From positions 1,024,001 to 1,088,000 of the forward strand of contig OY762654.1 of the NCBI GenBank assembly GCA_963666205.1: a stretch of 64,000 nt of DNA, in the 5' to 3' direction. The stretch's first letter is position 1, and every line of letters begins with the position of its first letter. The notes beneath the pieces were generated by a model that searched no databases, was not told the DNA's origin, and saw nothing but the letters and a program-made list of their open reading frames with translations. The position numbers were made by a program, and so were the translations under genes. Positions 20,806 through 46,347 of the stretch are shown here, piece by piece. This stretch comes from Synergistales bacterium. Lineage in GTDB: Bacteria; Synergistota; Synergistia; Synergistales; JAFGMB01.

Positions 20806-20833
20806 CTTCAAAAATATCATGATAATTTTGAAG
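20806..20833. promoter_or_regulatory. Palindromic operator upstream of ATPase gene
   Basis: CTTCAAAAATATCA|TGATAATTTTGAAG (1 mismatch) with extra half-sites near 20786 and 20842. Confidence 0.55.
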
Positions 20834-20865
20834 TTGACTTAAAAATTATCATAAGAGGTACCTCG

Positions 20866-22044: not shown

Positions 22045-22047
22045 TCA

Positions 22048-26939: not shown

Positions 26940-27110
26940 CCAGAACAATTTTACCGCAGAGGACGCAGAGAACGCAGAGGAAAGCGTAACCCTGAGTGAA
27001 CCATTTTTCTTTAACCTGCTGCGTATATATTTCCGAGTTCATCCGCTCAGACCTTATCCAACTTAGACTGAGGTTAATGGATGTCACATAATCATAGATT
27101 TGTGCCAGGA
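26940..27110. repeat. Modular repeat array R5
   Basis: TTTTACCGCAGAGGACGCAGAGAACGCAGAGG + ~90-100 bp element + hairpin E (reverse). Confidence 0.85.
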
Positions 27111-27149
27111 GAAACTCTAGCCATAAATTCTGGCTGGTTACTGGATTTA

Positions 27150-27527
27150 CTACAGCCCGTTGGCAAATCGGGTTATACCATCCTTAAGTTTGACTACATT
27201 GAAATTAATAAGCAATCCTAGTTTCTTGCCGCTCAGTTTCAAGTAAGAAAGGATCTGAGCCTTATGTATATCCGTTATTTTTTCAACGGATTTAAGTTCA
27301 ATAATAATCTCGTCCTCTACAACCAGATCCAGACGATAACCCAAGTCTATTTTGACTTCATCATAAATCACAGGAAGAACTTTCTGGGACTCAACTTTAA
27401 AGCCTCTTTTATTTAATTCATAACAAAGACAAGCTTCATATGAACTTTCGAGAAGACCCGGACCTAAAGCAGAATGTACTTTAACAGCGCTATCAATAAT
27501 TTCTTTGCTTATCTCATTTATCTCCAT
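27150..27527 (-). CDS. GxxExxY protein (PD-(D/E)XK nuclease superfamily, PDDEXK_3)
   Basis: LGPGLLESSYE, YRLDLVVEDEIIIELKSV, AQILSYLK, GLLINF; 125 aa. Confidence 0.92.
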   Translation of the reverse strand: MEINEISKEIIDSAVKVHSALGPGLLESSYEACLCYELNKRGFKVESQKVLPVIYDEVKIDLGYRLDLVVEDEIIIELKSVEKITDIHKAQILSYLKLSGKKLGLLINFNVVKLKDGITRFANGL

Positions 27528-27599
27528 AGGTCTGAATACCCCCCAATTCAGTCATGACAAAACCCTAACCATTCTACAACAAAATTGTTTTTGGTTTTG

Positions 27600-28105
27600 C
27601 CTCTAAGTCGTGCAAAACCGAGTCTGGTTTTGCGCAGTAGGAAAAAGATTTGCGGGTTTCCTCTGCGCTCTCTGCGCCCTCTGCGGTAAAACAGGTTTGA
27701 GGGTAGATTTTATAGTTTCCGTTTTTATTGTTTCCATGGCATAAATCTACGATTTCATGCCATACATCAACTTTGAGGTAAAGTAGTATCTAGTCCGAAC
27801 ATTCTGAACCCAGAATTGGGAAAATCCCATATTCCGCAATGTTTTAAGCTTTTCCTCCGCGGTACTCTGCGCTCCCTCTGTGTCCTCTGCGGTAAAACAG
27901 GTTTGAGGGTAGATTTTATAGTTTCCGTTTTTATTGTTTTCATGGCACAAATCTACGATTTCGAGCCTCCCCAAAACCTTTATCTTCGTAGGATATGGTC
28001 TGTCCGGACAAATATCACATGTTATTCATGAACAGTTATACCAAGGTTTTACGCCTTCCTCCGTGGTAAAAGGGTTATAACGGTTCAGCTTCACGGGTTT
28101 TACTC
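27600..28105. repeat. Modular repeat array R6
   Basis: Hairpin D 27608, hairpin E 27738 and 27944, iterons; ~79-bp tandem duplication at ~27679 and ~27884. Confidence 0.9.
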
Positions 28106-28917: not shown

Positions 28918-29525
28918 TATCGGTGCGCTGGAGCGCACCCTGCAAAACTTTATCTTACCGGGCCGAAGGTCCGCCCGTCCTCGATTTGTTTAGTGGGTTT
29001 TGGCGGCTTTCCTCCGTGGTAGAAAGGTTTACGGTTCTAAGGTTCCAATCGTGCAAAATAGTATCACCGTTTTGCGCAGCATGTATTATAACAAGTGGTT
29101 ATGACTTTCCTCCGTGCTACTCCGTGACCTCCGTGGTAGATAGGTTTTAGCGTTTGGGCTTTACGGGTTTTCATGGCACAAATCTACGATTTCGTGCCTC
29201 CCCAAAACCTTTATCTTCGTAGGATATGGTCTGTCCGGACAAATATCGGATGTTATTCCTGTTCAGGTATACCAAGGTTTTACGCCTTCCTCCGTGTCCT
29301 CCGTGGTGAAAGGGTTATAACGGTTCAGCTTTATGGGTTTCCATGGCACAAATCTTCGATTTCGTGCCTCTCAAAAACCTCAATCTTAGTAGTATTGGAT
29401 CTTGCAAAACATAACCAAAGATTAGTCGCAGCATATTTATACAAAAGGGGTTAAGCTTTCCTCTGCGCTCTCTGCGCCCTCTGCGGTAAAACAGGTTTTG
29501 ACTCTGATTTTGACTTTGGTTTTGA
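28918..29525. repeat. Modular repeat array R7
   Basis: REP 28922-28943, GTCCGCC stem, hairpin D 29049, hairpin E 29175 and 29345, iterons. Confidence 0.9.
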
Positions 29526-30304: not shown

Positions 30305-30460
30305 ACATGTTTAACCGCAGAGGACGCAGAGAAAACCGGGAGGAAAGCATAAAAACATCGCTATGTAGATTTTATTAATCTCCTGTTTTATATATACATG
30401 ACCTGATCCTACTAAGATAAAGGTTGATGTATGGCATCAAATCATCGATTTGTGCCAGGA
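30305..30460. repeat. Modular repeat array R8
   Basis: Iteron + 89-bp element + hairpin E; similar to 34059-34200. Confidence 0.8.
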
Positions 30461-30659
30461 AGCAAATATTTACAGTGGGCATCGAAGAAAATAACCTGGT
30501 TTTTTACCTGGAATATTTTAAATTGACTTAATTTTTATGTTCCATCATGTGATACCAGCGGCAGAAAAAGGTTCTCTTTTCTGCCGGCAGTCAACCTTAA
30601 AAAACAAAGAAATATTGTAATAAAACCGTAGAGTCAAAAACATTGCCCAAATTAAGTTT

Positions 30660-31490
30660 CAGTACTTGGGTTCCCTCTGCGCTCTCTGCGCCCTCTGCGG
30701 TTAGCTTAGGGTTAATAGGGGTAAAAGGTTTACGGTTCAGGTTTACGGGACCAATCGTGCAAAATAGTTCCATCATTTTGCGCAGCATAACAAGGAGTGT
30801 TAAGGGCCGAATGTCCGGCCAACCCGGCTTTAAGTTTTTTAGGAAGATCTTTGACGGAGGTTTTTGGCGGGTTTCCTCTGCGGTAAAAGAAAGATACTGA
30901 ATTTGTTTTTGACTTTGGTTTTATTGGTTAAGAGGTTTTCCTCTGTGACCTCTAGTTCGAAAGCACTACCTGGCACAAATCTACGATTTGGTGCCATACA
31001 TCAACCTCAGTCTAAGTAGCATAAGATCTGAGTGGACGTAACATCGGAATAAACACGCAGTATATGGATAAAATGGTTTGACGGGTTTCCTCAGGGTCTA
31101 CCTCTGCGAAACTCTGCGTAACCTCAGCGTCCTCTGCGGTAAAACAGCTTTTGATTTTGACCTGGTTTCCCTCCGTGTCCTCCGTGGTAGATAGGTTTTA
31201 GCGTTTTGGCTTTACGGGTTCCCATGGCACAAATCTCCGATTTTGTGCCTCCGGAAAAACTTGTTCACCAGGTTTTGTAAGTTTCAGGTTCTCGTTCTTA
31301 ATCGTGAAAAATCTAGTCTGATTTTTCGCAGCATGTTTCTTAAATCATTTGGTCTCGTTTTCCTCTGCGCTTCCTCTGCGCTCTCTGCGCCCTCTGCGGT
31401 AAAATAGCTTTTGACTTTGACCTGGTTTCCCCTCCTGCAAAGTTATCAGTCTTGCATACATACGGTTAAAATCAAGGTCTGACCCCATTC
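30660..31490. repeat. Modular repeat array R9
   Basis: Hairpin D 30755 and 31302, hairpin E 30972 and 31226, iterons; ends in a 34-bp element 31456-31489. Confidence 0.9.
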
Positions 31491-31827: not shown

Positions 31828-34044
31828 GTGTCTAACGTGCATTTATGTTTTCGTCGTGGCATGGTATTTGCCATAGCCTTGTTCTTGTTACTGTTTTTAT
31901 CCATACCATCCTTTGCAGCAGGTGAAGGTGTATCAGGAGTTACCGGACCATCCTCTGCCCCATCGGGGTCAACCGGCAGTGATGCCGGACCTGGAGGCAT
32001 GGAAATAACCGGTCCAACCATAGACGGTTCCATATTCACCCCCGACAACCAGGGTCCCGGCCAGATCGAGTTCCTGGACATGACAGGTTCCCAGGTACAG
32101 GACGCAACAGGACAGGTCCAGGCACCGGGCCAGCAGATGGGCGTTGATGACAGTAACAAAGACTACGTCTCGGGCGCCCTTCCGTCCGTTATCACCGATA
32201 AGCTTCCCCGTTTCGGATATAACTTCTTCAGCAGACCCTCTACCGCCTTTGCACCCGTAAGGAATGTTCCGGTGGGACCCGATTACGTGGTCGGACCCGG
32301 TGACACCGTCCGCATCGACATCTGGGGGCTTGAAGAGGGCCATTACACCGTACCCGTTGACCGAAACGGTAACCTTTCCCTTCCCAGGGCAGGCGTTGTA
32401 GGTGTTACAGGCCTCACCTTCGACCAGGTGAAAATGGCCGTCACAAGTGCCTATTCCCGCTACTACAGCAATTTCCAGATAAATATAACCATGGGTCAGC
32501 TGAGGACCATAACCGTCTACGTTGTTGGCCAGACCAACCGGCCAGGCGCCTATACCCTTTCATCCATGTCCACAGTGATCAATGCCCTTATCGCATCTGG
32601 AGGTCCCAGCTTTTCCGGAAGCCTGAGGAACATCCAGGTCAAACGCAACGAACGGATAGTGTCCCGGTTCGACGCCTATGAACTTCTCCTCCAGGGCAGC
32701 AAGAAAAAAGACATCCGCCTCATGGACGGCGACGTGCTCTTCATCCCCACCGTGGGTCCCCTGGTGGGCATTACCGGCGACATAAAGAACCCTGCCTACT
32801 ACGAACTCAATGGGCAGGCAAGGATCTCCGATCTTGTGGAGATGGCGGGAGGGTTCACCAACCGCTACTTCAAGGGCCGGGTCCAGGTTGACCGCACCAT
32901 GGGCAACGAATACCGCACATCCTTCGAGAACGACCTCGCAGGGCTCAAGGAGAATCCTGCAAAGAACATACCCCTGGAGAACGGCGACCTCGTCAAGATC
33001 TACTCCGTTTCCGTCCAGGAATCCAAGATATACCTTTCCGGTGCCGTCGCCCGTCCGGGCCAGTACTCCATCCAGCTGGGCAGAACCAGGGTCGGCGATG
33101 TACTTCGCCGCGCAGGAGGCCTTCTCTACATGGCATCCAATGAGGGCGAGCTCACCCGGGTAAAGGTCACACAGGCCGGCCCCGAAACAAGCCGTTTCCG
33201 CTTCGACATATCAAAGGCCATGGCCGGGGATCCCCAGAGCAACATGATCCTCGATGTCAACGACTACATAACCATCCGCACCGTACCCGACTGGACCCTC
33301 TACCGTACCGTAAGGGTACAGGGAGAGGTGAAGTATCCCGGCGTATACACCATCCAGAAGGGCGAAAGGCTCACAGACCTCATCGAGCTTGCTGGAGGAT
33401 ACACGGATGAGTCTTTCCTTCCCGGTGCGACCTTCACTCGTGCCAGCGTACAGCGCAAGCAGCAGCAAAGGATCGACGAAATGATCGACCGCCTGGAGAA
33501 ACAGCTTTACGGCGCATCCGTTGAAGGTACAGCAACAGCCCTCACAGAAGGGGATGCCCGCATGACCCAGATGGAGACCCAGCAGCGCCAGCGATTCCTC
33601 GACAGGCTCAGGGAAACAAAGGGAACGGGCCGCATAGTGGTGAAACTGCCCGAGAACCCCAGGATGCTCAAGGGAACACCCTATGATATAGAACTCGACC
33701 AGGGAGATACCCTGGTTATTCCTAAAAGGCCCCAGACCGTACAGGTGGTGGGTTCCGTCTATAACCCCATGGCCTTCGTGTACCGTCCCGACCAGCCCTT
33801 CACATACTACGTGAAGCAGGCCGGCGGATATTCATACAATGCCGATACAAAGAGGATCTACATCATCAAGGCCGATGGAACGGCAACGAGGTCCTTTGTG
33901 AACAAGAAACCTGTGACCATCGAAGATGGAGACAGCGTGATCGTGCCGGAGAAGATCGATGTCAAGGGCAAGCTGAGGGATACCAGGGACATCGTGGACA
34001 TCGTGTACAAGGTCGCCGTCGGCGCCGCCGTGTTACTCGACTAA
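31828..34044 (+). CDS. Polysaccharide export protein with multiple SLBB domains (Wza/KpsD-like)
   Basis: RFGYNFF, DYVVGPGD Poly_export motif, repeated V.GEV..PG.Y SLBB units. Confidence 0.88.
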   Translation: MSNVHLCFRRGMVFAIALFLLLFLSIPSFAAGEGVSGVTGPSSAPSGSTGSDAGPGGMEITGPTIDGSIFTPDNQGPGQIEFLDMTGSQVQDATGQVQAPGQQMGVDDSNKDYVSGALPSVITDKLPRFGYNFFSRPSTAFAPVRNVPVGPDYVVGPGDTVRIDIWGLEEGHYTVPVDRNGNLSLPRAGVVGVTGLTFDQVKMAVTSAYSRYYSNFQINITMGQLRTITVYVVGQTNRPGAYTLSSMSTVINALIASGGPSFSGSLRNIQVKRNERIVSRFDAYELLLQGSKKKDIRLMDGDVLFIPTVGPLVGITGDIKNPAYYELNGQARISDLVEMAGGFTNRYFKGRVQVDRTMGNEYRTSFENDLAGLKENPAKNIPLENGDLVKIYSVSVQESKIYLSGAVARPGQYSIQLGRTRVGDVLRRAGGLLYMASNEGELTRVKVTQAGPETSRFRFDISKAMAGDPQSNMILDVNDYITIRTVPDWTLYRTVRVQGEVKYPGVYTIQKGERLTDLIELAGGYTDESFLPGATFTRASVQRKQQQRIDEMIDRLEKQLYGASVEGTATALTEGDARMTQMETQQRQRFLDRLRETKGTGRIVVKLPENPRMLKGTPYDIELDQGDTLVIPKRPQTVQVVGSVYNPMAFVYRPDQPFTYYVKQAGGYSYNADTKRIYIIKADGTATRSFVNKKPVTIEDGDSVIVPEKIDVKGKLRDTRDIVDIVYKVAVGAAVLLD

Positions 34045-34455
34045 AACCAAGAGCTGTTTTACCGCAGAGGTCGCAGAGAGCGCAGAGGAAACCGAAAGGC
34101 AGGCATAAAAATTTCGCTGTGTAGGTTTTTATTAATCTCCTGTTTTATACATGCATGACTTGATCCTACTAAGATAAAGGTTGATGTACTTTTGTGCCAT
34201 GGGCATAAAGAAAATCATCAATTCTAAGAGCAAAACATGTAGTTACCTCAGAGGACGCATCGGAAAATTATAAAGAATGCAATGTTGTTTACTCTTTTGA
34301 CCGTTTATTATTCTAGAAGGTTTTGGCGGATTTCATGTAGACAGGAAGTTCTAGGGGGCTAATCGTGAAAAATCTAGTCTGATTTTTCGCAGTAATACAG
34401 ATTTTACAGGTTTAACGGTTTCCTCTGCGCTCTCTGCGACCTCTGCGGTTAGCTA
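34045..34455. repeat. Modular repeat array R10 (internal polarity switch)
   Basis: ACCGCAGAGG iterons at ~34060, then hairpin D' 34363 and CCTCTGCG iterons 34422-34451. Confidence 0.85.
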
Positions 34456-34498
34456 AGGGGTTTAGGTTTCACGGTCGAGAAGGGGTTTTATTCAATTT

Positions 34499-34876
34499 AT
34501 GGAAATTAATGAAATTAGCAAAACAATTATCGACAGTGCTTTCCAAGTTCACAAAGCATTAGGACCAGGTCTCCTCGAAAGTGCATATGAAGCCTGCCTC
34601 TGCTACGAACTCAAGAAAAGAGGATTTACAGTAGAATCCCAGAAAGTTCTCCCGATAATTTACGATGGACAACAAATTGATGTTGGTTATCGCCTGGATC
34701 TTCTTGTACAAGATCAGGTCATAGTAGAACTCAAATCTGTTGAACATATAAATGAGGTACATAAAGCACAGATACTCTCGTATCTCAAACTTGGTAATAA
34801 GAAACTCGGACTACTTATCAATTTCAACGTAGCCAAAATCAAGGACGGGATAACCCGTATCGTCAACGGTTTGTAG
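34499..34876 (+). CDS. GxxExxY protein (PD-(D/E)XK nuclease superfamily), second copy
   Basis: LGPGLLESAYE, YRLDLLVQDQVIVELKSV; about 98/125 identical to 27150-27527 by manual count. Confidence 0.92.
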   Translation: MEINEISKTIIDSAFQVHKALGPGLLESAYEACLCYELKKRGFTVESQKVLPIIYDGQQIDVGYRLDLLVQDQVIVELKSVEHINEVHKAQILSYLKLGNKKLGLLINFNVAKIKDGITRIVNGL

Positions 34877-35024
34877 GTTTTTTCGTCTTATAATATCAAG
34901 GTTTTGATTTACAAAGAAAATTGTTAATTAGGTTTTATCTAGTTATGCATATTTGAGGGTTTAGTCGGTCAAAATGGGTTGATCATTTTGACCAGTAGAG
35001 ATTTTTATACAAAAAAGATGTTTT

Positions 35025-35185
35025 TAGGTTTTCTCTGCGCTCTCTGCGGTTAGACAGGATTTAGACTTTAGGGTTGCCGGTTTTATTCGTGAAAAATCTA
35101 GTCTGATTTTTCGCAGTAATACAGATTTTACAGGTTTAACGGTTCCCTCTGCGCTCTCTGCGACCTCTGCGGTTAAACAGTATTT
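35025..35185. repeat. Modular repeat array R11
   Basis: 35087-35175 is a direct repeat of 34363-34451. Confidence 0.9.
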
Positions 35186-35212
35186 GATTTTAATAGATTT
35201 TGAGGGGTAAAC

Positions 35213-36442
35213 ATGACACCAGAAGAACAACTCGCACAACAAAACAACCAGCAATATTACTACGAAGACGACGAGATCGACATCCTCGATCTGCTCATTG
35301 TCCTTGCCAAACACAAAAAACTCATCCTTGGCCTCACTACCCTATTTGCGGTTCTTTCCATCGCCTATGCCCTCCTGGCCACACCCATCTACCGGGCAAC
35401 CACAAAGATACTGCCCCCCATGGCTGGCAAACAGAGCATGGCCATGAGCATGATCGCCCAGGCAGGCGTACCCGGCTTTGCCGCCGATGCCCTTGGCATC
35501 AAGACCCCCGGAGACCTTGTGGTGGGTATCGTCAAAAGCCGTACAATCATGGATAAACTGATAAATAAATTCGACCTTCAGGCCAGGTATGAATCCGAAA
35601 ACATGGATCTCACCAGAGAGACTCTTTCCACCTCCACTTCTGCCGCAACCGATGCAAAAACGGGCCTTGTTTCCATTTCCATTGAAGACAAAGACCCTGC
35701 CTTTGCTGCCCAGCTTGCCAACAGCTACGTGGAGGAACTGCAGAACTTCATCCAGCAATTAGCCATAAGCGATGCCGCCCAGCAGCGTCTGTTCCTGGAA
35801 GAACAGGTAAAGGAAACCCAGGTAAACCTTTTGAAGGCCGAAAATGAACTTACCGAATACCAGAAAAAAACGGGGATCCTCAATGCCGGCCAGCAGGCAT
35901 CGTCCCTTATGTCTGCCATCGCCACCTTCCGGGCCCGCATATCCGCCAAGGAAGTGGAACTCCAGGCAGCAGAGACCTTTGCCTCTCCAAACAACCCCAG
36001 GATCCAGAAACTCAGGGCCGAGGTCAAGGGCCTTAAAGAACAGATCCAGAAACTGGAAGCCCAGGCAACGGAGGGCAGCGAAGAATCCTTCAACCTAAGC
36101 GAACTTCCAGATGCAGGCATGGAATACCTCCGTAAGATGAGGGACCAGAAGTTCTACGAGACCTTATACGGCATGCTCCTGAGCCAGTTCGAGCAGGCAA
36201 AGATGGCCGAAGCCCAGGAACCTGCCATCATACAGGTTATAGATGAGGCAGTGCCTCCACAGCTCAAGGCAAAACCAAAACGGAAACAGGTTGTGATCCT
36301 TGCCACGGTTCTCGGATTTTTCCTGTCCATATTTATGAGTTTTGTGATGGAATTTATTGAGAATGCAACAACGGATAACGAACGCAATGAAAAATTAAAA
36401 CTGTTAAAAAAACATTTGAGTTTAAGAAAACAGCAGAACTAA
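35213..36442 (+). CDS. Polysaccharide chain-length determinant (Wzz/GumC, GNVR domain)
   Basis: DEIDILDLL, TPIYRAT, coiled coil, IQVIDEAVPP..AKPKR, two TMs. Confidence 0.88.
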   Translation: MTPEEQLAQQNNQQYYYEDDEIDILDLLIVLAKHKKLILGLTTLFAVLSIAYALLATPIYRATTKILPPMAGKQSMAMSMIAQAGVPGFAADALGIKTPGDLVVGIVKSRTIMDKLINKFDLQARYESENMDLTRETLSTSTSAATDAKTGLVSISIEDKDPAFAAQLANSYVEELQNFIQQLAISDAAQQRLFLEEQVKETQVNLLKAENELTEYQKKTGILNAGQQASSLMSAIATFRARISAKEVELQAAETFASPNNPRIQKLRAEVKGLKEQIQKLEAQATEGSEESFNLSELPDAGMEYLRKMRDQKFYETLYGMLLSQFEQAKMAEAQEPAIIQVIDEAVPPQLKAKPKRKQVVILATVLGFFLSIFMSFVMEFIENATTDNERNEKLKLLKKHLSLRKQQN

Positions 36443-36547
36443 AGTCTGAGAGTAAAAAGTTTTGAATATCATTTCCAGAAGAATCCAAGGATAAGAGCCA
36501 TATTTCACTCGATTCAACGAATACTATCGAGAAAGGAACGTGTACTC

Positions 36548-38011
36548 ATGAATGGCTCAACATATGCAATAAAGAAGGAAGAACATGTTTTTTCGGGGTC
36601 AAGGTATGGCTATCTTCAGCAATGGATGATGCCCTTCACTTTATTGTCTTCAGATATTATGGCTTTCTTCTTCTCATGGGCAATAGCGATAGTTGTTGCG
36701 ACCCTTATGGGTAAAAACATTGCTTTAGCAGACTATCTGAATTTCCTTTATTTCATACCACTATTTCTCTTTGCCTTTTTGCTAAGCGGACTCTATTCCA
36801 GAACAAGTACAAACCCTGTAGAAGAGATCAGAAAATTATCATTGATAACGTCCTTTTCATTCTTTTTTTTGATCACAGGCATATTTATCATGCATCGGGA
36901 AAGCCTCTTCTTTTACTCAAGGTTTACAATTTCCCTGGCAGGGCTCTCATCTCTGGCAATTATTCCTCTATTGCGAAGCTTTACAAGACATCTTTGCGCC
37001 CATAACGCATGGTGGGGGACTCCAGTCCTGATCCTGGGTGCTGGAAAAACTGGACAGATGATCGCCAGAAAAATAAATGAAACACCATCTTTAGGTTTGA
37101 AATTGATTACTATTCTGGATGACGATCATGATAAACAGCTTGATACACTGTATTTCCCTGCATCAGGTCCCATTTCTGATATGCGAAATATAGCTATAAA
37201 CAACAGGCTCTGTAAAGTGCTTATTTGCATGCCTGGAGTGAGTAAAGAAAAAGTCATCTCCATCATGGACGAATGCACCAGGTATTTTAACCATGTGACA
37301 GTGATTCCGGACCTTTTTGGTATGTCTTCTCTCTGGGTAAACGCAAAAGATATTGGAGGGGTATTAGCCCTTGATATACAGAATTCTTCTCTCTCCACCA
37401 GTGCTCAGTTTATTAAGAGGACTGTGGATGTATTTTTGGTACTAACGGGTGGATTTTTGATTCTCCCTCTAATTTTAATTGTCTCTTTATTTGTAAAACT
37501 GGACTCACCTGGTCGTATCTTTTATGGCAATAAACGAGTTGGAAAGAATGGAAAAAACTTTCTTTGCTGGAAATTTCGAAGTATGAAACAAAATGCAGAT
37601 GAATTACTCAATTCCTATTTAGCTAAAGATCCCACGCTTCAAAAAGAATGGGATAAAACACAGAAACTTCAGAATGACCCTCGCATAACAAAGATCGGGA
37701 AATCGCTAAGGAAATGGAGCATTGATGAACTACCCCAACTCTGGAATGTTTTAAAAGGAGAAATGAGTCTGGTTGGACCCAGGCCATGTTTTGAAGAACA
37801 GTTGAAGATGTACGGGAATAATCAACATCTTTATACCAGCGTTAAGCCAGGTATCACAGGGTATTGGCAGATATCTGGAAGAAACTCTCTTAACTTTGAA
37901 GATCGAGTCAGACTTGAGAGATATTACGTAAGCAACTGGTCAATATGGCTTGATATATATATCCTCGCCAAAACGATAATGGTTGTAATTAAAGGCGAAG
38001 GGGCTTATTAA
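36548..38011 (+). CDS. wbaP: Undecaprenyl-phosphate sugar-1-P transferase (WbaP-like)
   Basis: KRTVD, KFRSM, DPRIT, SIDELPQLWNVLKGEMSLVGPRP, KPGITGYWQ. Confidence 0.85.
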   Translation: MNGSTYAIKKEEHVFSGSRYGYLQQWMMPFTLLSSDIMAFFFSWAIAIVVATLMGKNIALADYLNFLYFIPLFLFAFLLSGLYSRTSTNPVEEIRKLSLITSFSFFFLITGIFIMHRESLFFYSRFTISLAGLSSLAIIPLLRSFTRHLCAHNAWWGTPVLILGAGKTGQMIARKINETPSLGLKLITILDDDHDKQLDTLYFPASGPISDMRNIAINNRLCKVLICMPGVSKEKVISIMDECTRYFNHVTVIPDLFGMSSLWVNAKDIGGVLALDIQNSSLSTSAQFIKRTVDVFLVLTGGFLILPLILIVSLFVKLDSPGRIFYGNKRVGKNGKNFLCWKFRSMKQNADELLNSYLAKDPTLQKEWDKTQKLQNDPRITKIGKSLRKWSIDELPQLWNVLKGEMSLVGPRPCFEEQLKMYGNNQHLYTSVKPGITGYWQISGRNSLNFEDRVRLERYYVSNWSIWLDIYILAKTIMVVIKGEGAY

Positions 38012-38052
38012 GACGTCGCCCTCAATTAATTAAGGCTACATGGTGAACTTAC

Positions 38053-38610
38053 TTGAATAAAAAAATTATAGATTTAAGTCAAGCTGGATATGGGAAATTT
38101 AAAAGGACGAGATCCAAATGGATTGAGGCTTTATGGATTATAGTGGAATTTTGCTTTGTAACAAATCCCATACAAGTTTCAAGTAAATTACGTATTCTGC
38201 TTATCAGGATGTTTGGAGGAAAAATCGATAAAAATGTAATCATGAGGCCCAGAGTTCGGATCAAGTTTCCTTGGAATCTGGAAATCGGAAATAACTGCTG
38301 GATTGGTGAAGGTGTTTGGATACATAACCAGGATAAGGTCTACATTGGCAATAATACAGTTATTTCACAAGAGGCATTTATAACAACTGGTTCCCATGAT
38401 CATTACAAAACCATGGATTTGATCACAAAACCAGTCAGGATTGGTTCTGGTGTCTGGATAACCTCCAGAGCAATGATATTGCTAGGTGTTTCAATAGCTG
38501 ATAATGCAATAATTACACCCAACAGTGTTGTACATCGAAACATAGAAAAAGCCGGAATTTATTGCGGAAATCCTGCTGTTTTGATAAAAGAGAGGAAGAT
38601 CACAGATTAA
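38053..38610 (+). CDS. wcaF: WcaF-like hexapeptide acetyltransferase
   Basis: RIKFPWNLEIGNNCWIGE, ISQEAFITTGSHD, GNPA. Confidence 0.8.
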   Translation: MNKKIIDLSQAGYGKFKRTRSKWIEALWIIVEFCFVTNPIQVSSKLRILLIRMFGGKIDKNVIMRPRVRIKFPWNLEIGNNCWIGEGVWIHNQDKVYIGNNTVISQEAFITTGSHDHYKTMDLITKPVRIGSGVWITSRAMILLGVSIADNAIITPNSVVHRNIEKAGIYCGNPAVLIKERKITD

Positions 38611-39853
38611 TCTTCTTGTAATAAGTCTTAATTATGCACCGGAACTTGTTGGTGTTGGAAAGTATTCTTCGGAAATGTGTTCCTGGTTTGTATCGAGGGG
38701 GCATTCAGTAGATGTCATAGCCGGATTACCACATTACCCCGAGTGGGAAATACATCAAGAATACAAGAATAAAGGATTCTACACAGAAGCGATTGATGGA
38801 GTAAATATTTTAAGAGTACCCCATTTTGTTCCTCCAGCAGATAGAGTTAATGCTAAAACCAGAATTAAACTTGAAACAAGCTTTCATTTAAAATCATTGA
38901 GATATGCGTTGCCAATTTTATTCAAAAAGAAGAAATACGATGCTGTTATAGCAGTCTGCCCTCCAATGCAGTCAGGTTTGTTCCCAATGATATACAAGAT
39001 CTTTAGAAATGTCCCATGGATATTTCATGTACAGGACCTCCAGGTAGATGCCGCCCTAAATCTTGGTATTTTAAAAAATCACACTATCATTAGAAAAATG
39101 CTATTTGGGATTGAAAAAATGCTTTTTAAAAATGCTACAAAGGTTTCAACGATCACTGATGCGATGAAACAGAAGATCATTAATAAAGGTATTGATCCAA
39201 ACAAAATGGTTCTTTTCCCAAATTGGGCTGATCTGGATTTTATTAAACCTATGGATAGAAATAATCCCTTAAGAAAAGAATTTGGCTATACAGAAGACGA
39301 TACTGTAATCATGTATGCCGGTAATATGGGTGAAAAACAGGGACTCGAAATAATTATTGATGCAGCATGTCATTTTACACAAGATTCAAACATCCAGTTT
39401 GCCATGGTTGGCGACGGGACTGCAAAAAAAAGGTTAACTAAATTAACTCGAGACAAAGGGCTTACCAACCTTCATTTTTTCCCATTGCAACCTCTTCAGA
39501 AATTACCGAATCTCCTAGCCATGGCAGATATTCATCTGGTTATCCAAAAAAGGGAGGCTTGTGACTTAGTTATGCCATCGAAATTAACTAATATTTTGGC
39601 TGCTGGAAGACCTATTATAGCAACTGCAAAATATGGAAGCCACTTATATCAAGTTATTGTTGAAAACCAATGTGGTTTGGTTTTAAAGTCACACAGGACA
39701 GTTGAACTAATTGAAGGCATCAAAAATCTCACCAATCAAGCCCTGATGGTAGAACAAATGGGACAAAAATCTCGATTTTATGCCATAAACTATTTTGATA
39801 AAGAAAAGATCCTCCAAGAAATGGTATATAACATAAATCGGATAATGACCTAA
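38606..39853 (+). CDS. wcaI: WcaI-like GT4 glycosyltransferase, probable ATT start
   Basis: In-frame N-terminal INLLVISLNYAPELVGVGKYSSEM upstream of ATG 38675; PHYPEW, HVQDLQVDAA, YAGNMGEKQG, VMPSKL. Confidence 0.8.
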   Translation: MNLLVISLNYAPELVGVGKYSSEMCSWFVSRGHSVDVIAGLPHYPEWEIHQEYKNKGFYTEAIDGVNILRVPHFVPPADRVNAKTRIKLETSFHLKSLRYALPILFKKKKYDAVIAVCPPMQSGLFPMIYKIFRNVPWIFHVQDLQVDAALNLGILKNHTIIRKMLFGIEKMLFKNATKVSTITDAMKQKIINKGIDPNKMVLFPNWADLDFIKPMDRNNPLRKEFGYTEDDTVIMYAGNMGEKQGLEIIIDAACHFTQDSNIQFAMVGDGTAKKRLTKLTRDKGLTNLHFFPLQPLQKLPNLLAMADIHLVIQKREACDLVMPSKLTNILAAGRPIIATAKYGSHLYQVIVENQCGLVLKSHRTVELIEGIKNLTNQALMVEQMGQKSRFYAINYFDKEKILQEMVYNINRIMT

Positions 39854-40006
39854 TTGTGATGGATACATAAATATAGATAAAAATGCAAATTATCCCTGCT
39901 AGGAATTGGTAACTTATTTCCCTAAAAGAATATGAATTGACCTTAGGTTTTACTATTTGTAAACACAAGATTTCTCGTAGTATTAAATTATTAGTATGAG
40001 AAAGGA

Positions 40007-41125
40007 ATGGAAATGAAAGAAGAAGACGGCCGCGTAAAGATCGTGTTATTATCACCTCTCCCACCTCCATCCGGAGGTATTGCTACTTGGACAAGCTCTA
40101 TCTTAAGAAGCAGATTGACCAAGCACTATAAATATATTCTTGTTAATACCAGGATAACAAGTCAAAGAGGGACGAGTGAATCATGTTGGCAATTTCCTTT
40201 TAGTGAATTAGCTAGAAATGGAAAGATAATCTTTAATTTTCTTTATGCTATTTTTTATCATTCACCTAAGCTTGTCCATATAAACAACGCTTCATGGAGT
40301 TTTGGTGGTATTTTCAGGGATTTACTCTTAGCTACCATATCAATAATTTTTAGGAAAAAAGTAATCATTCATTTTCATGATTGTTTAGTGTATCGACCAA
40401 AGTCTTTGTTCTATAGATTTTTATTAACTCAGTTAATTAAAACTTCAACTCTGATTATCACCTTAGACAAAAAATCAGAGAAATTTATAGAGAATCTTTC
40501 GATAAAACATAAGAATTATAGTTTCTCTCTATGTAACATTCCAAATTTTATTGACAATAACAAAATATTACTAGATTCAGAAAATATGCATTCAATAAAG
40601 AATGTCAAAGTTTTATTTGTTGGAAGTATAACAAAAAACAAAGGATGTCGCGACATCCTTGAAGTTGCAAGATCATTACCAGAGATACAGTTTACGCTTA
40701 TTGGTAAGGTCCAGTCAGATATGATCGAATTGGTCAGAAAAATAGCTGAGCCCAACATTAAGTTTATCTCTGAAATATCGAATCGAGAAGTATTGAAAGA
40801 AATGCAAAAAGCCAATATTTTTTTGTTACCTTCATATAAAGAAGGATTCCCATTAGTTATTCTTGAAGCAATGGCAAACAGATTACCTGTAATAGCAACA
40901 AATGTAGGAGCTATACCTGAAGTTATCATTCAAAACAAGGGTGGATATGTGCTTAAACCAGGTGATGTTCAATCGATGAAAGAATTGTTAACAAAACTTA
41001 GATTAAACCTAGATTTAAGGTTGGAAATGGGTGAGTTTAATTTTGACTTTGTTTCTAAGAAGTTTCTTCTGTCAAACATTGAAAAATACCTTTACGAAGC
41101 ATATCAGAAAGTCCTCTCGAAATAA
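40007..41125 (+). CDS. GT4 glycosyltransferase
   Basis: SPLPPPSGGIATW, EGFPLVILEAM. Confidence 0.85.
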   Translation: MEMKEEDGRVKIVLLSPLPPPSGGIATWTSSILRSRLTKHYKYILVNTRITSQRGTSESCWQFPFSELARNGKIIFNFLYAIFYHSPKLVHINNASWSFGGIFRDLLLATISIIFRKKVIIHFHDCLVYRPKSLFYRFLLTQLIKTSTLIITLDKKSEKFIENLSIKHKNYSFSLCNIPNFIDNNKILLDSENMHSIKNVKVLFVGSITKNKGCRDILEVARSLPEIQFTLIGKVQSDMIELVRKIAEPNIKFISEISNREVLKEMQKANIFLLPSYKEGFPLVILEAMANRLPVIATNVGAIPEVIIQNKGGYVLKPGDVQSMKELLTKLRLNLDLRLEMGEFNFDFVSKKFLLSNIEKYLYEAYQKVLSK

Positions 41126-41231
41126 AAGCTAAGTACAGAGAAAATAGGTTTTCAAGAACCTTTTGGATTATAACATTGATTGATTGATTGATTTCTTGAA
41201 CAGTACCAAGAGATCGGATTAATAAAATTGG

Positions 41232-42359
41232 ATGGTGAAAGATTTGCGAAAAGTCCTCTTTTATACTGGGAGTCTGGCATCAGGGGGGGCAGAGAGACAG
41301 TTGATATACACTGCGCTATCCGCTCAATTAAATGGTTATAAGGTGCTTATAGTAATCGATCATGACCACTGCGACTACACCAAAATGTTGGAAGGTACAA
41401 ATATTGAAATCTATTGCACTCATTCGAACAAGTACAATCCAATAAAACGTTATATTAAATTAAATGGAATAATACAAGAATTTAAGCCTGAAATTTTCCA
41501 TTCATTCCTAGCAAACAAAAATTTATGGGGTATGTTATTAGCATATTTGAACAAAGTTCCGATTAAAATTGCCTCGATAAGAAACACTAATTCTTCAGCT
41601 TTTAAGGGAATTCAATTCTACAACAAATGGGCAGACAAGATAATATGCAATTCAAGGTTTGCATATGAAATTGCTCATTCCACATACGGAGTCCCAAGAA
41701 AAAAATTGGAAGTCATCTATAATTGCATCGATATGGATCGCTTCAACAATACAATGATCTCTCTAGATATAAAACATAATTTGGGACTTTTGGACAACAC
41801 CAAACTTGGTATAACTGTAGCTCGTTTTTCCAAACAGAAAAATCATCTGGGTTTTGTCAAAGCTTTTAGTAATTTTGTTGGAGAAAATTCAAGTGTTTGT
41901 CTGCATCATTTGTTTGTAGGCAATCAAAAAGATATAAAAATAGTGCAGCCGGTAAGAGCAACCGTTGATACCTTGAATTTATCTGAAAACATAACCTTTT
42001 GGGATACCAGAGAAGATATTCCAGAAATAATAAAAGCCTGCGATTTTCTTATACTCCCTTCTCTATATGAAGGTTTTCCAAATGTTGTTATGGAAGCGAT
42101 GGCTTCAAAAACATTTGTAATTGCAACAGCAGTAGGGGGTATACCAGAACTGGTTAAGCATATGGAAAATGGAATCTTAATTCCTAGCCCACGTGCAAAA
42201 GATATTGCAAAATCAATTGAATTATATCTCTCTCTTTCTGCTGAAAAAAAAGAACGAATAATTAATCAAGCATATATCGATATACAAAGCTACGGTATTG
42301 AAAACATGTTTAGACAAACTGAAGAGCTCTACACAGTATTTAATTTCTCCATAGGATAG
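41232..42359 (+). CDS. GT4 glycosyltransferase
   Basis: LASGGAERQ, EGFPNVVMEAM. Confidence 0.85.
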   Translation: MVKDLRKVLFYTGSLASGGAERQLIYTALSAQLNGYKVLIVIDHDHCDYTKMLEGTNIEIYCTHSNKYNPIKRYIKLNGIIQEFKPEIFHSFLANKNLWGMLLAYLNKVPIKIASIRNTNSSAFKGIQFYNKWADKIICNSRFAYEIAHSTYGVPRKKLEVIYNCIDMDRFNNTMISLDIKHNLGLLDNTKLGITVARFSKQKNHLGFVKAFSNFVGENSSVCLHHLFVGNQKDIKIVQPVRATVDTLNLSENITFWDTREDIPEIIKACDFLILPSLYEGFPNVVMEAMASKTFVIATAVGGIPELVKHMENGILIPSPRAKDIAKSIELYLSLSAEKKERIINQAYIDIQSYGIENMFRQTEELYTVFNFSIG

Positions 42360-42418
42360 CGCTGTCATAATCTCCCCCAAAAGGAACTTACCTAATCAAT
42401 AGCAACATTAGGAGGATT

Positions 42419-43339
42419 TTGCTCATGCCCAGAACCTTCATAAAATCACCAAAGAATCATAAAAGTCTAATCGCTATGCTTTTCAGCTATATAAAACCTT
42501 CTATTTGGCATATTTGCGAAATGCTACCAGATAGACTTTTTATTTCGCTTATATTTAGGAAGTCAATGGGTTATTTTCCGAACTTAAATCAACCCAAAAC
42601 ATATAACGAAAAGATTCAATGGTTAAAGTTAAATGACCGGAAACCTGAATATCATGAGATGGTTGATAAATACGAGGTTAGGAAGTTTGTTTCAGAAAGA
42701 ATAGGAAGCAAATATTTAATTGACTTGTATGGGTTATATAACTCTTCTGAAGAAATAGATTTTTGCCAGTTACCCAACCAATTCGTTATGAAATCGACAC
42801 ATGGCTCTCATTCAGTCTACATTTGCAAGAATAAAACTGAAGAGGATTACAACAAGATAAGAAATTTGAGCAAAGATTGGTTTAATCAAGACATTTATAC
42901 AAGATATAGAGAATGGGCCTACAAAGGTCTTAAAAAAAGAATAATTGCGGAAAAGTTATTAGTCGATTCAGAAGGGAAAACCCCAGATGATTATAAAATA
43001 ATGTGTTTTAATGGAAAACCAATGGTAATACAACATCATCAGAATCGTTTTGGGAACTATACCTTGGATTATTATGATTGTAATTGGAAACGATTAAGTG
43101 TTTATAGACCATATGCCCCAAATTCTTCGAACCCCAAACCTAAACCAATCAATCTAGAGAATATGGTGAACATAGCTAAATCTCTATCCAAAGGAATCAA
43201 GTTCGTTAGGGTAGATCTTTACAATTTAGGAGGAATAATTAAGTTTGGGGAAATGACTTTTTATCCAACAAGCGGTCTGACCCCATTAGAACCACCAGAA
43301 TGGGATATCTTATGGGGACAGTTAATTGATATTAGTTAA
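42419..43339 (+). CDS. TupA-like ATP-grasp protein
   Basis: NEKIQWLKL, VDKYEVR, KSTHGS, DYKIMCFNG, FVRVDLY, FGEMTFYP. Confidence 0.88.
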   Translation: MLMPRTFIKSPKNHKSLIAMLFSYIKPSIWHICEMLPDRLFISLIFRKSMGYFPNLNQPKTYNEKIQWLKLNDRKPEYHEMVDKYEVRKFVSERIGSKYLIDLYGLYNSSEEIDFCQLPNQFVMKSTHGSHSVYICKNKTEEDYNKIRNLSKDWFNQDIYTRYREWAYKGLKKRIIAEKLLVDSEGKTPDDYKIMCFNGKPMVIQHHQNRFGNYTLDYYDCNWKRLSVYRPYAPNSSNPKPKPINLENMVNIAKSLSKGIKFVRVDLYNLGGIIKFGEMTFYPTSGLTPLEPPEWDILWGQLIDIS

Positions 43340-43371
43340 TGGTCCCTTCTCAAAATTCAGAAGGGACCATT
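43338..43371 (+). terminator. Hairpin immediately after tupA-like stop
   Basis: AATGGTCCCTTCT-N8-AGAAGGGACCATT. Confidence 0.55.
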
Positions 43372-43372
43372 G

Positions 43373-43467
43373 TTGATGCCATACTTCTTGTATATGGAAG
43401 CGGGAGAGTTGCTTTATGCTTCAGCAATAATAGCCACCTTTTGATCTTGATTATAGTTTCGTAACTG
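43373..43467 (-). pseudogene. Possible transposase HTH (OrfA) fragment
   Basis: Translates QLRNYNQDQKVAIIAEA*SNSPASIYKKYGI, resembling an HTH_Tnp_1 N-terminus with an internal stop. Confidence 0.35.
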
Positions 43468-43663
43468 TAGCCTTGTTGGCCTTATTATAATTTTTCGAAT
43501 GATTTAGTACAACTCTTCTGGTGATCAGGAAGTATCAGTAATTATCAACTTCGAAATACATTTTTTCTTGAAAGCATAAGGATTCACAAAGATTTGACAT
43601 TCGAGAATTAGCTAATCAGCACTTCCTCATGTATAGGAAGCTTACCGAGAGGAGTAAGACGAA

Positions 43664-44995
43664 ATGGTAATATCCCTTTTCCAGAATTGTATAGTTTTAT
43701 TATGGTTTTCAATTGGTATATACCAGGTATACACAGGAAACAAGAACTTTTTACTTATTGGAATGCTAATAAGTTTAATTATCCCTAGATTTGTGTTAAA
43801 CGCAAATATAAAGATACCACCGCATTATTTCGTTTTTTTGCTCCTGGCAATCTGGACATTTTTCAATTTCATAATAAAAAAACAAAAAACCTCATTAGAG
43901 ATAGGATTTTTCATATTACCAATAACATATTTTTTCTTATTATGCCTTGTTTTTACAGGTTCATTAAATGGAATTTTATCAGTGGAACAAAGAGAATTTT
44001 TTGGAGCATCTCTATTTGGCCTGTTCATCTTTGTAGTAGAATTATTGTTATTTTCCTTATTTATATCCGAGTTTAGGCATCAGTATTATTGTCTGGTTAA
44101 ATCAATAGATATTATTTTTTTTACTTTGGTACTAGCCAATTTAGGCACTGCTATTTTTCAACTGTTTTTTGGCCAAATTAATATTTTCCAAAACCTTTAC
44201 AGCAGTCAGACTAATAATGTATTAGGTATAATGAGTAGAATGGGTGGTTTCCACAGAGCTACAGGCCTATTTCCAAGTCCCGTTAACCTAGGCGTTTTTA
44301 CGCTGCTAAGTTTTGCATATTTTATATATAGAAAGCAGTTTTATATCTCCTTATTATCTTGCTCTTTAGGTATATTGGCAGCTAGCAAAACCGCCATCAT
44401 TGGAATTCCTTGTCTCTCAATCCTTGTCTTGGTATTTATTTCCATAAAAAAAGTAACTACATTCACCACAAAAAAAAGCTCGATTAGATTTGCTATCTTT
44501 CTCAGTTTTACTTGCCCCATTTTATTAGTCTTAATTTATTTTTTGGGCCAAAGCAAGGGTGTGTATATAAATTATTACTTGAAATATTTAATAAAACCTT
44601 TCGATGCACTACATAGTCGATACACTGGTGACATCACTTTTCTAAAAATAACATATGAATCAATTAAACAACATTGGCTAATAGGATCAGGCTTTACATT
44701 TCTCCCGAGAGAAAATCTTGGTGACTCCATGTATATTTTTTGGTTGAAAACAACTGGTATTCTTGGTATGTGCATATTATTTACAGGCATTCTCACTCTG
44801 TTACACCATTTTCTCAACGGGGAAACCGGGATATTGATTTTTATTCTAGCTTTCCTGTTTAGTGGACTTGCACTTACTAATACAGATTTTTTTAGTAATT
44901 CAATTATGTCAGCCCTACTCGTAACAAGCAGTTCTAATAAACATAAAAACCTGCTTACAAACATTCATGTTGTTACGACATCTGATCAAAATTAG
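43664..44995 (+). CDS. Wzy-like polysaccharide polymerase
   Basis: ~11 TMs, RATGLFPSPVNLG, low GC, position in the cluster. Confidence 0.7.
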   Translation: MVISLFQNCIVLLWFSIGIYQVYTGNKNFLLIGMLISLIIPRFVLNANIKIPPHYFVFLLLAIWTFFNFIIKKQKTSLEIGFFILPITYFFLLCLVFTGSLNGILSVEQREFFGASLFGLFIFVVELLLFSLFISEFRHQYYCLVKSIDIIFFTLVLANLGTAIFQLFFGQINIFQNLYSSQTNNVLGIMSRMGGFHRATGLFPSPVNLGVFTLLSFAYFIYRKQFYISLLSCSLGILAASKTAIIGIPCLSILVLVFISIKKVTTFTTKKSSIRFAIFLSFTCPILLVLIYFLGQSKGVYINYYLKYLIKPFDALHSRYTGDITFLKITYESIKQHWLIGSGFTFLPRENLGDSMYIFWLKTTGILGMCILFTGILTLLHHFLNGETGILIFILAFLFSGLALTNTDFFSNSIMSALLVTSSSNKHKNLLTNIHVVTTSDQN

Positions 44996-45109
44996 ACATG
45001 CTTTAAACAATACCAAATATATTTAATTATTTATTAATATTTTTTCATAGATTTATCTGAACACAATATCTTATTGAACAAGTGACAAACAGGGGATATC
45101 TATTTCTAA

Positions 45110-46118
45110 TGACCTGCTCCCAGAAAAGTGGTCCAGTTGAAATGCGAGAAAGTTGCTAAAATTGGGCCCCTCGAGAAGGAATATTCATGAAGAAGAGATT
45201 TTGGAGAGGAATAGATCGTCTCCATATTGAAAGAACACAAAACAGGAATACCCGGTAAAGAGCTGGCAAGATACGGATTCAGTGAAAGACGGACGTGCGG
45301 GCTACTGAAAATACACTGAACGACATTGAGATACAACAGCAGGAAAGACAGGCAGGATGGACAGGAAAGGACAAGGTTTAAAGAACTCCCCTAGTATGGA
45401 AACGCGATCACTACATAAGGCTTCATACCCTGATTTACAGGTAAGGTTATGAGATAAACCATAAGAAGGGTGACCGGCTGTACTGTGAGGAAGATCTCAG
45501 GTTCAGGAAGAGAAGGAAGAAACGGTTGGCAAGACCACGATTATCAGAACCACTCGTTCTGGATAGAGCCAACCAGAGATGGTCGTTGGATTTTGTTTCC
45601 CATAACACAGCCATAGGGAGCAGGATCAGGATATTGACAGTAATAGATACATTTACGAGAAAATATCTTGCACTGGAAATGGAAACATACATAAGGAGAA
45701 GCCGTGTTTCCACGGTATTGGACCGGATAAGTATGAAGAGAGGTTATCCTGAAGAGATCCTTACCGACAAGGGACCAGAATTCACAAGTAAAGTAATGGA
45801 TGCCTGGGCTTATATCAGAGGAATAACCCACAGGTTTATAGAACCTGAGAAACCGTCACAGAACGGATATAGAGAGTTTCAACGGTAAGTTACGTTATGA
45901 ATGTCTAAACGAACAATGGTTTTTTAACCTTAAAGATACCATGAATATCATTGGCGAATGGAAGAAGACCTATAACGCGGAAAGACGTGACAACTTATTT
46001 GATAATATGACACCGTCGGAATTTGCTAAGAAAATAACGGTAAAAGAAGAAGCCCTCTGTGCTTAAAGATGTCAGGAAACTCGCATAGAAACTGGACCTA
46101 ATGCAGGAGGACAGGTCA
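45110..46118 (+). mobile_element. Degenerate IS3-family (IS407-like) element
   Basis: Imperfect terminal IRs TGACCTGCTCCC..GGTCCAGTT and AACTGGACC..GGACAGGTCA; frameshifted OrfA from 45188 (MKKRF..IVSILKEH) and OrfB relic (NQRWSLDFV, LTVIDTFTR, TDKGPEF, P.QNGY). Confidence 0.85.
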
Positions 46119-46347
46119 GGTCATCAAGAGGAGAATCTAAAATGAGAAGATTCTCTATTATTAGTCGATTTTTTATTCCTTCTGAATTCGCTCTGAAATA
46201 TGAAGGGGGAAAAGAAGTCACTGTTACATAGCAAGAATAAGAAACTTGTATCTATACTTACTTAAACATAAAAAGCAGATAATAGTGGCATGTCTCTTGC
46301 ATTATCTAATATCTAAGAAATAATATTTATCCTACAAATCGAAAGAG

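Follow-up and report, generated by a model that had tools for sequence, protein, structure and literature searches.

In the REPIN/RAYT system, a gene is flanked by short palindrome-forming repeats that it is thought to mobilize, as Bertels & Rainey (2011, PMC3116915) describe, and other described systems that invite comparison include the mosaic elements of enterobacteria, integron cassettes, nuclease gene units inserted with long target duplications, and the open reading frame (ORF)-bearing intervening sequences of 23S rRNA. The locus presented here lies in a Synergistales bacterium (assembly GCA_963666205.1) whose genome is one contig of 2,948,783 bases; the stretch analyzed, called the window throughout, comprises 64,000 nucleotides (contig OY762654.1, positions 1,024,001 to 1,088,000, forward strand) and includes much of an exopolysaccharide (EPS) locus. 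Between an export gene and the chain-length gene wzz of this locus, a small gene of the GxxExxY family, hereafter gene 2 (34499-34876, + strand, 125 aa), stands between two near-identical copies of an 89-nt direct repeat. GxxExxY proteins are a large family without known function, and the corresponding domain, PDDEXK_3, is listed in part of the literature as being of unknown function. The repeated module is apparently the end-piece of a widespread selfish gene cassette, itself apparently undescribed, and not an integration scar. The explanation regarded as probable, with moderate confidence, is that gene 2 is a lineage-specific nuclease gene within a compound array of cassette arms, and that the direct repeat reflects local duplication of a module or gene conversion. 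No published description of a GxxExxY cassette with such arms was found in the open full-text literature, subscription journals lying outside the search.

The evidence for a cassette comes from the family at large. A scan of species-representative genomes with the gene 2 protein recovered 73 loci from many phyla, 68 of which were testable for flanking repeats by comparing the 200 nt before with the 200 nt after each ORF at a repeat threshold of 30 bits; 181 other ORFs of the same loci served as controls. Inverted repeats surround 42 of the 68 GxxExxY genes versus 4 of the 181 control ORFs, three of these four being themselves bordered by such arms, while direct repeats are not enriched (3/68 versus 4/181). 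The inverted repeats, or arms, consist of ACC or TTCACC followed by about three CRCRGAK units (iterons), each 7 nt long and set at 9-10-nt spacing, with an ACC...GGT terminus. Bacteroides arms, for example, have the unit CACAGAT, those of Acidobacteriota CGCGGAG and those of Planctomycetota CACAGAG, and the CGCAGAG unit of the window is also present at two proteobacterial loci (L041 and L060). The phased structure is kept across phyla while its letters change. The canonical cassette is a 125-aa PD-(D/E)XK gene between two inverted arms, placed exactly from the stop codon of one gene to the start codon of the next. Regulator genes of the GerE/LuxR type were also seen to be bordered by CGCAGAT or CACAGAT arms (L043, 5180-5758; L035, 5186-5758); at L043 the arms have the canonical inverted sense, so genes besides GxxExxY may lie between such arms.

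A clear example of cassette behavior is seen at one gene junction of the Bacteroides group, which was examined in 16 loci, six of them with only one flank found in the stored locus. The junction is filled in four loci, the query's own genome included, by cassettes of 453-499 nt with differing unit types that begin right after the stop codon and end right before the next ATG, and no target duplication is visible at these filled sites. In six loci it is empty, holding 8-80 nt of unrelated, arm-free spacer. The existence of filled and empty states at a single junction indicates that the GxxExxY family behaves as a mobile cassette. The unit types at the filled junction (L100-L113) are CACAGAT, CACGGAT, CACAGAG and CACTGAG, and in three other Bacteroides-group genomes the junction flanks lie 2.3-2.6 kb apart. 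Within the group, proteins with the same iteron type are 71-94% identical and those of different types 65-74%; since gene and arms are co-inherited, this grouping says nothing about recognition of the arms by the protein.

The product of gene 2 is a typical member of the family. It matches PF13366 (PDDEXK_3) with an E-value of 6.1e-45 and 152.8 bits (cut-off 22), and TIGR04256 ("GxxExxY") with an E-value of 1.1e-46 and 158 bits (cut-off 35). Across 50 aligned sequences, residues G24, E27, Y30, E77 and K79 (gene 2 numbering) are invariant and D67 and Q91 are conserved in at least 90%; gene 2 carries all seven, including the motif G24-x-x-E27-x-x-Y30. Its AlphaFold2 (AF2) model, with a predicted local distance difference test score (pLDDT) of 95.8, was matched by VIA-align to Cas4 SSO0001 (Z 9.5 over 100 residues, root-mean-square deviation 3.6), to the restriction-endonuclease-like protein 3ijm (Z 8.1) and to Hjc resolvases (Z about 7; 7.1), although the best Foldseek match was weak (E 3.1e-3), and a PDB sequence search with the protein returned no match. 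On this model, the protein is predicted to adopt the PD-(D/E)XK, restriction-endonuclease-like fold. The genome's other GxxExxY unit, unit 1 (26942-27760, - strand), contains gene 1 (27150-27527, - strand) between canonical inverted arms at 26955-26979 and 27661-27685. Genes 1 and 2 share 78% amino-acid identity, with a proportion of nonsynonymous differences (pN) of 0.125 and a saturated proportion of synonymous differences (pS) of 0.75; the saturated pS and low pN imply that both genes have been kept by selection and that gene 2 was not recently copied from gene 1. Together, the family-invariant residues, the comparison of pN with pS and the predicted fold indicate that gene 2 is live. Members of the family are patchy across the order, occurring in 10 of 151 genomes (E up to 1e-10). 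The one genome of the same genus that was compared, G001, has a third GxxExxY gene of the genus outside its EPS locus (L087, 1690-2670; 61% identical to gene 2); this gene sits between two gene-less arm-hairpin-hairpin-arm units of CGCAAAG, and its arm-gene-arm sense is the reverse of the canonical one.

The direct repeat around gene 2 was recovered by a repeat search as a two-copy sequence of 92 nt (34360-34451 and 35084-35175, both + strand), 98% identical with two mismatches and 724 nt from start to start. A preliminary description of this DNA had reported 89-bp direct repeats identical save for one base, and this was confirmed: the 89-nt core (34363-34451 and 35087-35175) has a single mismatch, T at 34421 versus C at 35145, and the second mismatch of the 92-nt repeat falls outside it, at 34362/35086. 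Both copies are the same complete module and contain, in order, a 29-nt hairpin (CGTGAAAAATCTAGTCTGATTTTTCGCAG; 34364-34392 and 35088-35116), a linker of 23 nt, and three CTCTGCG units, one every 9 nt (34423-34447 and 35147-35171) ending in GCGGTTA. The arm itself, here called R-type, reads CTCTGCG-CT-CTCTGCG-AC-CTCTGCGGT and occupies 34416-34449 in copy 1 and 35140-35173 in copy 2. The hairpin occurs in the window in three exact and two one-mismatch copies versus none expected, and genome-wide the 92-mer has two full-length matches only, together with 16 partial matches to other modules.

The spacer that holds these modules (34045-35212) is about 1.17 kb long. It is bounded upstream by the Wza-like export gene (31828-34044, + strand), with SLBB and Poly_export domains, and downstream by wzz (35213-36442, + strand), with Wzz and GNVR domains; these profile matches bear out the earlier placement of the GxxExxY gene between export and chain-length genes, and glycosyltransferase and sugar-nucleotide genes come after wzz. 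The compound element runs from 17 nt past the export stop codon, where an L-type arm begins (34061-34094, - strand, three CGCAGAG units as read on the + strand), to 37 nt ahead of the wzz ATG, where copy 2 ends and the wzz leader follows. Next to the L-type arm is a module of no assigned strand (34072-34188) that is 87% identical to 30316-30431, which likewise abuts an L-type arm, and then 165 nt of unique DNA (34189-34353), single-copy in the genome, which precedes copy 1. Gene 2 is the sole family-matching ORF of at least 60 aa between the two copies. The earlier statement that the repeats flank only the GxxExxY ORF nevertheless needs correction, as the interval also holds a second hairpin (CGGTCAAAAT...ATTTTGACCAG; 34966-34995, + strand), a variant of the locus's other hairpin type in which paired changes keep the stem, and a short R-type arm of two CTCTGCG units (35033-35050, + strand) that continues through the linker GTTAGACAGG into copy 2. 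The inventory of the spacer is one L-type arm just after the export gene and three R-type arms ahead of wzz.

The L-type arm is a perfect 34-nt complement of the arm of copy 1 (34416-34449) and a one-mismatch complement of that of copy 2 (35140-35173), and the 421-nt stretch with the gene-less inverted doublet at 34061-34449 folds at -154 kcal/mol (z -8.65). Both observations would suit a role at the RNA level, in which RNase III would cleave long stems that L-type and R-type arms form in the operon transcript, as it does in 23S rRNA intervening sequences, and the two R-type copies would provide alternative stems enclosing either 321 nt or the whole spacer with gene 2. A plain stem, however, needs no three phased units, yet the units are kept across phyla, and many arrays of the locus are solo or stacked one way without a nearby partner (e.g., at 22333, 22550 and 22832). 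Such a role, alternative stems included, is considered improbable, and it would be compatible with, and not exclusive of, a nuclease gene lying within an array of cassette arms. Searches of Rfam gave no match in the whole window at the gathering threshold, rRNA included, and none in 33900-35400 at E up to 1, and predicted promoters and terminators in 33900-35400 were no more numerous than in shuffled sequences, none of them being on the + strand.

The modules of the spacer belong to a larger family that is local. The pattern CTCTGCGNNCTCTGCG, with one mismatch allowed, occurs 37 times in the window versus 0.02 times expected. Genome-wide, all 33 exact CTCTGCG double iterons fall within one stretch of the EPS locus of about 62-63 kb, and with one mismatch tolerated 25 of 30 arrays map inside 1,031,992-1,093,451 of the contig. 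Comparison with the ORF list places all arrays between genes except one, which lies inside a doubtful ORF of 98 aa. A second unit type, CTCCGTG, ending in GGTGAA, is equally confined (10 of 11 and 7 of 7 genome matches), and in G001 31 of 39 matches are on contig C3 at 32-98 kb, which is that genome's copy of the locus. The CTCCGTG family is found at 8253-8284, 22608-22640, 22889-22920, 29110-29135 and 52375-61735, adjoining CTCTGCG arrays; its GGTGAA terminus is the TTCACC-type terminus seen in other phyla, and no cognate GxxExxY gene is nearby. The arrays also show a polarity switch, with CTCTGCG and CTCCGTG on the + strand in 7992-35171 and on the - strand in 52375-69475, and the three exceptions in the left part pair as inverted doublets. 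An operator or iteron role of the units, serving a plasmid-like replicon or a dedicated EPS regulator, was considered and set aside, as GxxExxY genes of unrelated loci and phyla lie between arms of this very design.

When eight hairpin-plus-array modules are aligned, they share a common architecture; the near-identity of the two copies around gene 2 extends from the hairpin base as far as the arm terminus GCGGTTA, beyond which the flanks are alignable but diverged. Rather than an att-like site private to gene 2, the 89-nt repeat is one whole module of a multi-copy hairpin-plus-iteron family. Between their units, all three of the three-unit arrays in this spacer have the letters CT/AC, versus CT/CC in nine and TT/TC in one of the other ten three-unit arrays of the window, and the restriction of CT/AC to this spacer suggests local homogenization.

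Duplicated modules are not peculiar to gene 2. Eight near-identical module pairs (at least 55 nt, at least 95% identity) are present in the window, including the 34360/35084 pair, and the seven others flank unrelated DNA. For example, a 145-nt direct repeat (58227-58371 and 61331-61475; 98.6% identical, 3104 nt apart) encloses an epimerase gene (58606-59613, - strand) and a UDP-glucose dehydrogenase gene (59830-61161, + strand). Apart from these eight pairs, a 97-nt module composed of an arm tail and a bulged hairpin is present at 27665-27761 and 27871-27967, the copies being 92% identical and 206 nt apart. This pair is single-copy in G001, which lacks the 109 nt of unique DNA between the copies, indicating that A-B-A structures, in which two module copies enclose other DNA, come and go on this time scale. 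The bounds of the direct repeat coincide with those of the module, and this, together with the CT/AC homogenization, the commonness of module pairs and the single-copy state of 27665-27967 in G001, argues for local duplication or gene conversion around gene 2.

Comparison with G001 also provides a hint of movement between lineages. The gene 1 unit with its arms (26948 to about 27750) is 98-99% identical to its G001 counterpart, versus 76-94% per 100 nt for the adjoining YjbH gene. Among 16 syntenic blocks of at least 400 nt, identity is 85-94% in 13, 67% in one and 98% in two, the latter being GxxExxY unit 1 (26942-27756) and a repeat-bracketed AAA_14/DUF4143 ATPase gene (20691-22084). These identities suggest recent exchange of arm-bounded units between lineages. 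The core of the EPS locus (36355-53107), with glycosyltransferase, flippase and TupA-like genes and an rve integrase-core fragment at 45526-45888, has no match of at least 400 nt in 80 kb of the G001 locus and has the appearance of a typical variable core.

At the junction occupied by gene 2, the export and wzz genes of G001 are 87% and 85% identical to those of the window, and the spacer between them is of similar length (1125 nt). As here, an L-type arm opens it and R-type arms close it, but its interior differs: it has no GxxExxY gene and no single 89-nt copy, and is filled by other modules, pieces of which match 30406-30703 (92%) and 29337-29487 (91%) of the window, both upstream of the export gene here. 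The module nearest to wzz is of a different hairpin type. The linker that follows copy 1, GTTAGCTAAGGGGTTTA(A)GGTTTCA, also follows an arm in G001, which indicates that the DNA to the right of copy 1 is family DNA and not the edge of a foreign insert. The G001 spacer also contains, at about 8870-8935 of L011 (reverse complement), an apparent end of a second Wza-type coding sequence (..DIVYKVAV..; its final codons) with a terminator-like hairpin after it, and this remnant hints at past recombination with a paralogous locus. Four more distant relatives in which the export and wzz genes are adjacent have spacers of about 22, 60, 60 and 190 nt with no arrays, identifying the 1.1-1.2 kb spacer of this genus as an insertion complex. 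Taken as a whole, these alignments indicate that gene 2 is lineage-specific DNA at this junction. A metagenome scan with the Wzz protein yielded no relative, and one with an alignment of the export protein yielded a single distant locus (L086, 38% identity) of no use for the empty site.

One-step insertion that duplicates a long target would be a rival to local duplication. In this scenario, a 632-nt segment with gene 2 entered a resident module upstream of wzz and the module was duplicated on both sides, an outcome that staggered cuts at the two module boundaries could give, possibly made by the cassette's own nuclease. The A-B-A topology with 98% identical A copies is what such an event would leave, the right end of the repeat is an arm terminus and hence a plausible cut site, the A-B-A structure at 27665-27967 is single-copy in G001, and duplications of more than 30 bp are a published class for restriction-modification genes in passages of Furuta et al. 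(2010, PMC2853133). Set against this, no single-copy allele was found at this junction, where G001 differs in the hairpin type next to wzz, and the sequence GCTAAGGGGTTTAGGTTTCA, with which the supposed insert would begin on its left, is a linker of the usual kind between modules and follows an arm in the gene-less G001 as well, so no junction with foreign DNA exists at the boundary 34451|34452. The repeat is, moreover, multi-copy, and the same passages set "chance insertions between repeated sequences" apart (PMC2853133); across the family, the lack of enrichment of direct flanks also speaks against it. This scenario is considered rather unlikely. In a broader and still somewhat less likely form, the A-B-A arrangement would be the true footprint of the family, its nuclease cutting both module boundaries and repair copying the module to both sides, such that arms would be both target and product. 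If so, it would explain the local pile-up of repeats and the remodeling of every gene junction in the EPS locus, and possibly the shuffling of polysaccharide genes between lineages at arm-bounded breakpoints.

Data from sequencing runs, compared as contigs, bear on the integrity of the arrangement; X4 and X5 probably represent the source sample and hence are not independent of the assembly. Their contigs (34428-35084 and 34464-35048) start inside the array of copy 1, cross gene 2 and reach the beginning of copy 2. The contig with gene 2 has a depth of 15.6 versus 13.4 for the export-gene contigs in X4 and of 8.75 versus 7.92 in X5, depth being no measure of a share of cells. Other joints at the arrays in the X4 and X5 contigs (34094 to 34423, 34094 to 35147, and opposite-strand ones) were not taken for rearrangements, their sides being 27-35 nt long and inside repeats, and none of the contigs of X6, which carries the same species label, matched the region. 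An assembly artefact, in which the module was mis-duplicated, might be suspected where repeats of this sort break short-read graphs, and the X4 and X5 contigs do stop at arrays. However, two positions distinguish the copies, whose flanks are also unlike on either side, the X5 and X4 contigs link the arm of copy 1 to gene 2 and gene 2 to the start of copy 2, and the genome is a single closed-looking contig. The chance of such an artefact is considered negligible.

The preliminary description had suggested a circular cassette integrated at a module, or a unit able to excise and restore a single site; worked out as a model, a 724-nt circle would enter and leave the 89-nt module through site-specific recombination, much as integron cassettes do. 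Such a cassette would account for direct repeats that bound a single-gene unit inside an operon, for the hairpin within the repeat, and for the lack of the gene at the G001 junction. Against it, a Pfam scan of the 47 ORFs of the window found no integrase and no tyrosine or serine recombinase, only the 120-aa rve fragment at 45526-45888, and a profile search found no transposase or integrase between or beside the repeat copies; the absence of an integrase from the window makes site-specific integration of a circle unlikely. Similar module pairs flank unrelated segments, the family elsewhere has inverted arms with arm-free empty sites, and the X4 and X5 contigs contain no 724-nt skip, although contigs cannot show rare forms. 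Circular integration is thus very doubtful. Of the earlier proposal, the idea of a cassette survives, in that the gene is absent from the G001 junction and the family has filled and empty sites at the Bacteroides-group junction, but reading the repeat as an att-like integration footprint is not supported, given the family-wide inversion of the arms and the module pairs around unrelated DNA. The predicted joining of SLBB and wzz genes by a single 89-bp copy was seen neither in G001 nor in the two metagenome scans or the run contigs.

Under the preferred explanation, a nuclease gene within a compound array of cassette arms, the three-CTCTGCG arm ending in GCGGT would be the end-repeat of the GxxExxY nuclease cassette family. 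In this genus of Synergistota, such arms may have gained hairpin modules and become numerous in the EPS locus, and a short export-wzz spacer would have grown to about 1.17 kb of stacked modules, with nuclease gene 2 in this genome only when compared with G001. A whole module duplicated locally, or copied by gene conversion, would then have produced the direct repeat, as part of concerted evolution among neighboring arms. The nuclease may recognize the phased units and cut at the arm terminus, while paired arms such as the doublet 34061-34449 may fold back; cutting and fold-back together could promote insertion at gene junctions, homing into existing arms and the local spread of gene-less arms. 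A direct repeat of 89 nt has the length that ordinary homologous recombination needs, and the repeat may therefore also permit deletion of the unit by this route.

Several observations weigh against this explanation. The arms nearest to gene 2, upstream at 34416-34449 and downstream at 35033-35050 and 35140-35173, all have the same orientation, and the arm inverted to them, the L-type one at 34061-34094, is 405 nt upstream of the gene, a departure from the canonical design. Proteins with CGCAGAG arms do not cluster across phyla (50-63% identity), indicating that arm type is not simply tied to protein clade. In X1, a relative about 91% identical, a contig joins 34464 to 35189 and skips exactly 724 nt, and X1 contigs give no cover of 34628-34995, where gene 2 lies; X1 thus has the appearance of an allele that lacks the gene, in register with the repeat, although the short side of the joint is 43 nt and the letters between are not known. 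The joint places an arm and 13 nt of the right flank of copy 1 directly before the wzz leader, which is not the clean single-module site that had been predicted. Local duplication or conversion is, furthermore, an origin deduced from context, a one-step insertion duplicating a resident module would give the same A-B-A picture, and nuclease activity and iteron binding of the GxxExxY protein are putative.

The direct repeat itself is then an ordinary by-product, and the wider significance of the locus lies with its arms. For a nuclease gene set between iteron arms of its own, it shows in addition that the arms can multiply in the absence of the gene without leaving one polysaccharide locus, that they take up hairpin modules, and that they undergo concerted evolution. 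An arm-bounded unit that is 98% identical between species whose flanking genes differ by 6-15% points to recent exchange at the level of the cassette. If the nuclease really acts on the arms, it would form with them a compact enzyme-plus-site mobile system that could drive the diversification of surface-polysaccharide loci.

Each of the known systems compared fails at least one defining feature here. Like REPIN/RAYT, the locus has a low-copy gene of nuclease/transposase type with flanking repeats, as well as gene-less inverted doublets that fold into hairpins (here 34061-34449). Unlike in that system, the gene is PD-(D/E)XK (PF13366) and not an HUH/Y1 (IS200-like) transposase, the repeats are three 7-nt units at 9-nt spacing and not a repetitive extragenic palindrome (REP), all 33 exact double iterons fall in a single locus of about 62 kb instead of being dispersed, and the gene-plus-arms unit shows filled and empty sites in other phyla. 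The bacterial interspersed mosaic elements (BIMEs) of enterobacteria are likewise intergenic arrays of a few modules in varying order and orientation with fast turnover between close relatives, but here the arm module is common to a cross-phylum protein-coding cassette and the arrays cluster in a single EPS locus. Integron cassettes share a promoterless-looking single-gene unit in an operon-like array and a hairpin-forming, site-like border; here, by contrast, there is no IntI or attI, the flanks are near-identical whereas attC sites are distinct, and the canonical borders of the family are inverted. Units with long target duplications, in passages of Furuta et al. (PMC2853133), resemble the locus as transposase- and integrase-free nuclease gene units with direct repeats of more than 30 bp (89-92 nt here), though that class requires a relative with one copy at an empty site, which was not found in G001. 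Finally, the ORF-bearing intervening sequence (IVS) in the 23S rRNA of Coxiella burnetii, with its S23p ORF, is similar, in the passages of PMC4990558 concerned with it, in its size of about 430-500 nt, its one small ORF, its terminal inverted repeats that form a long stem, and a patchy distribution suggesting horizontal transfer. The present unit differs from the IVS in lying between protein-coding genes instead of in helix 45 or 25 of 23S rRNA, in the family of its ORF, and in arms built of phased units.

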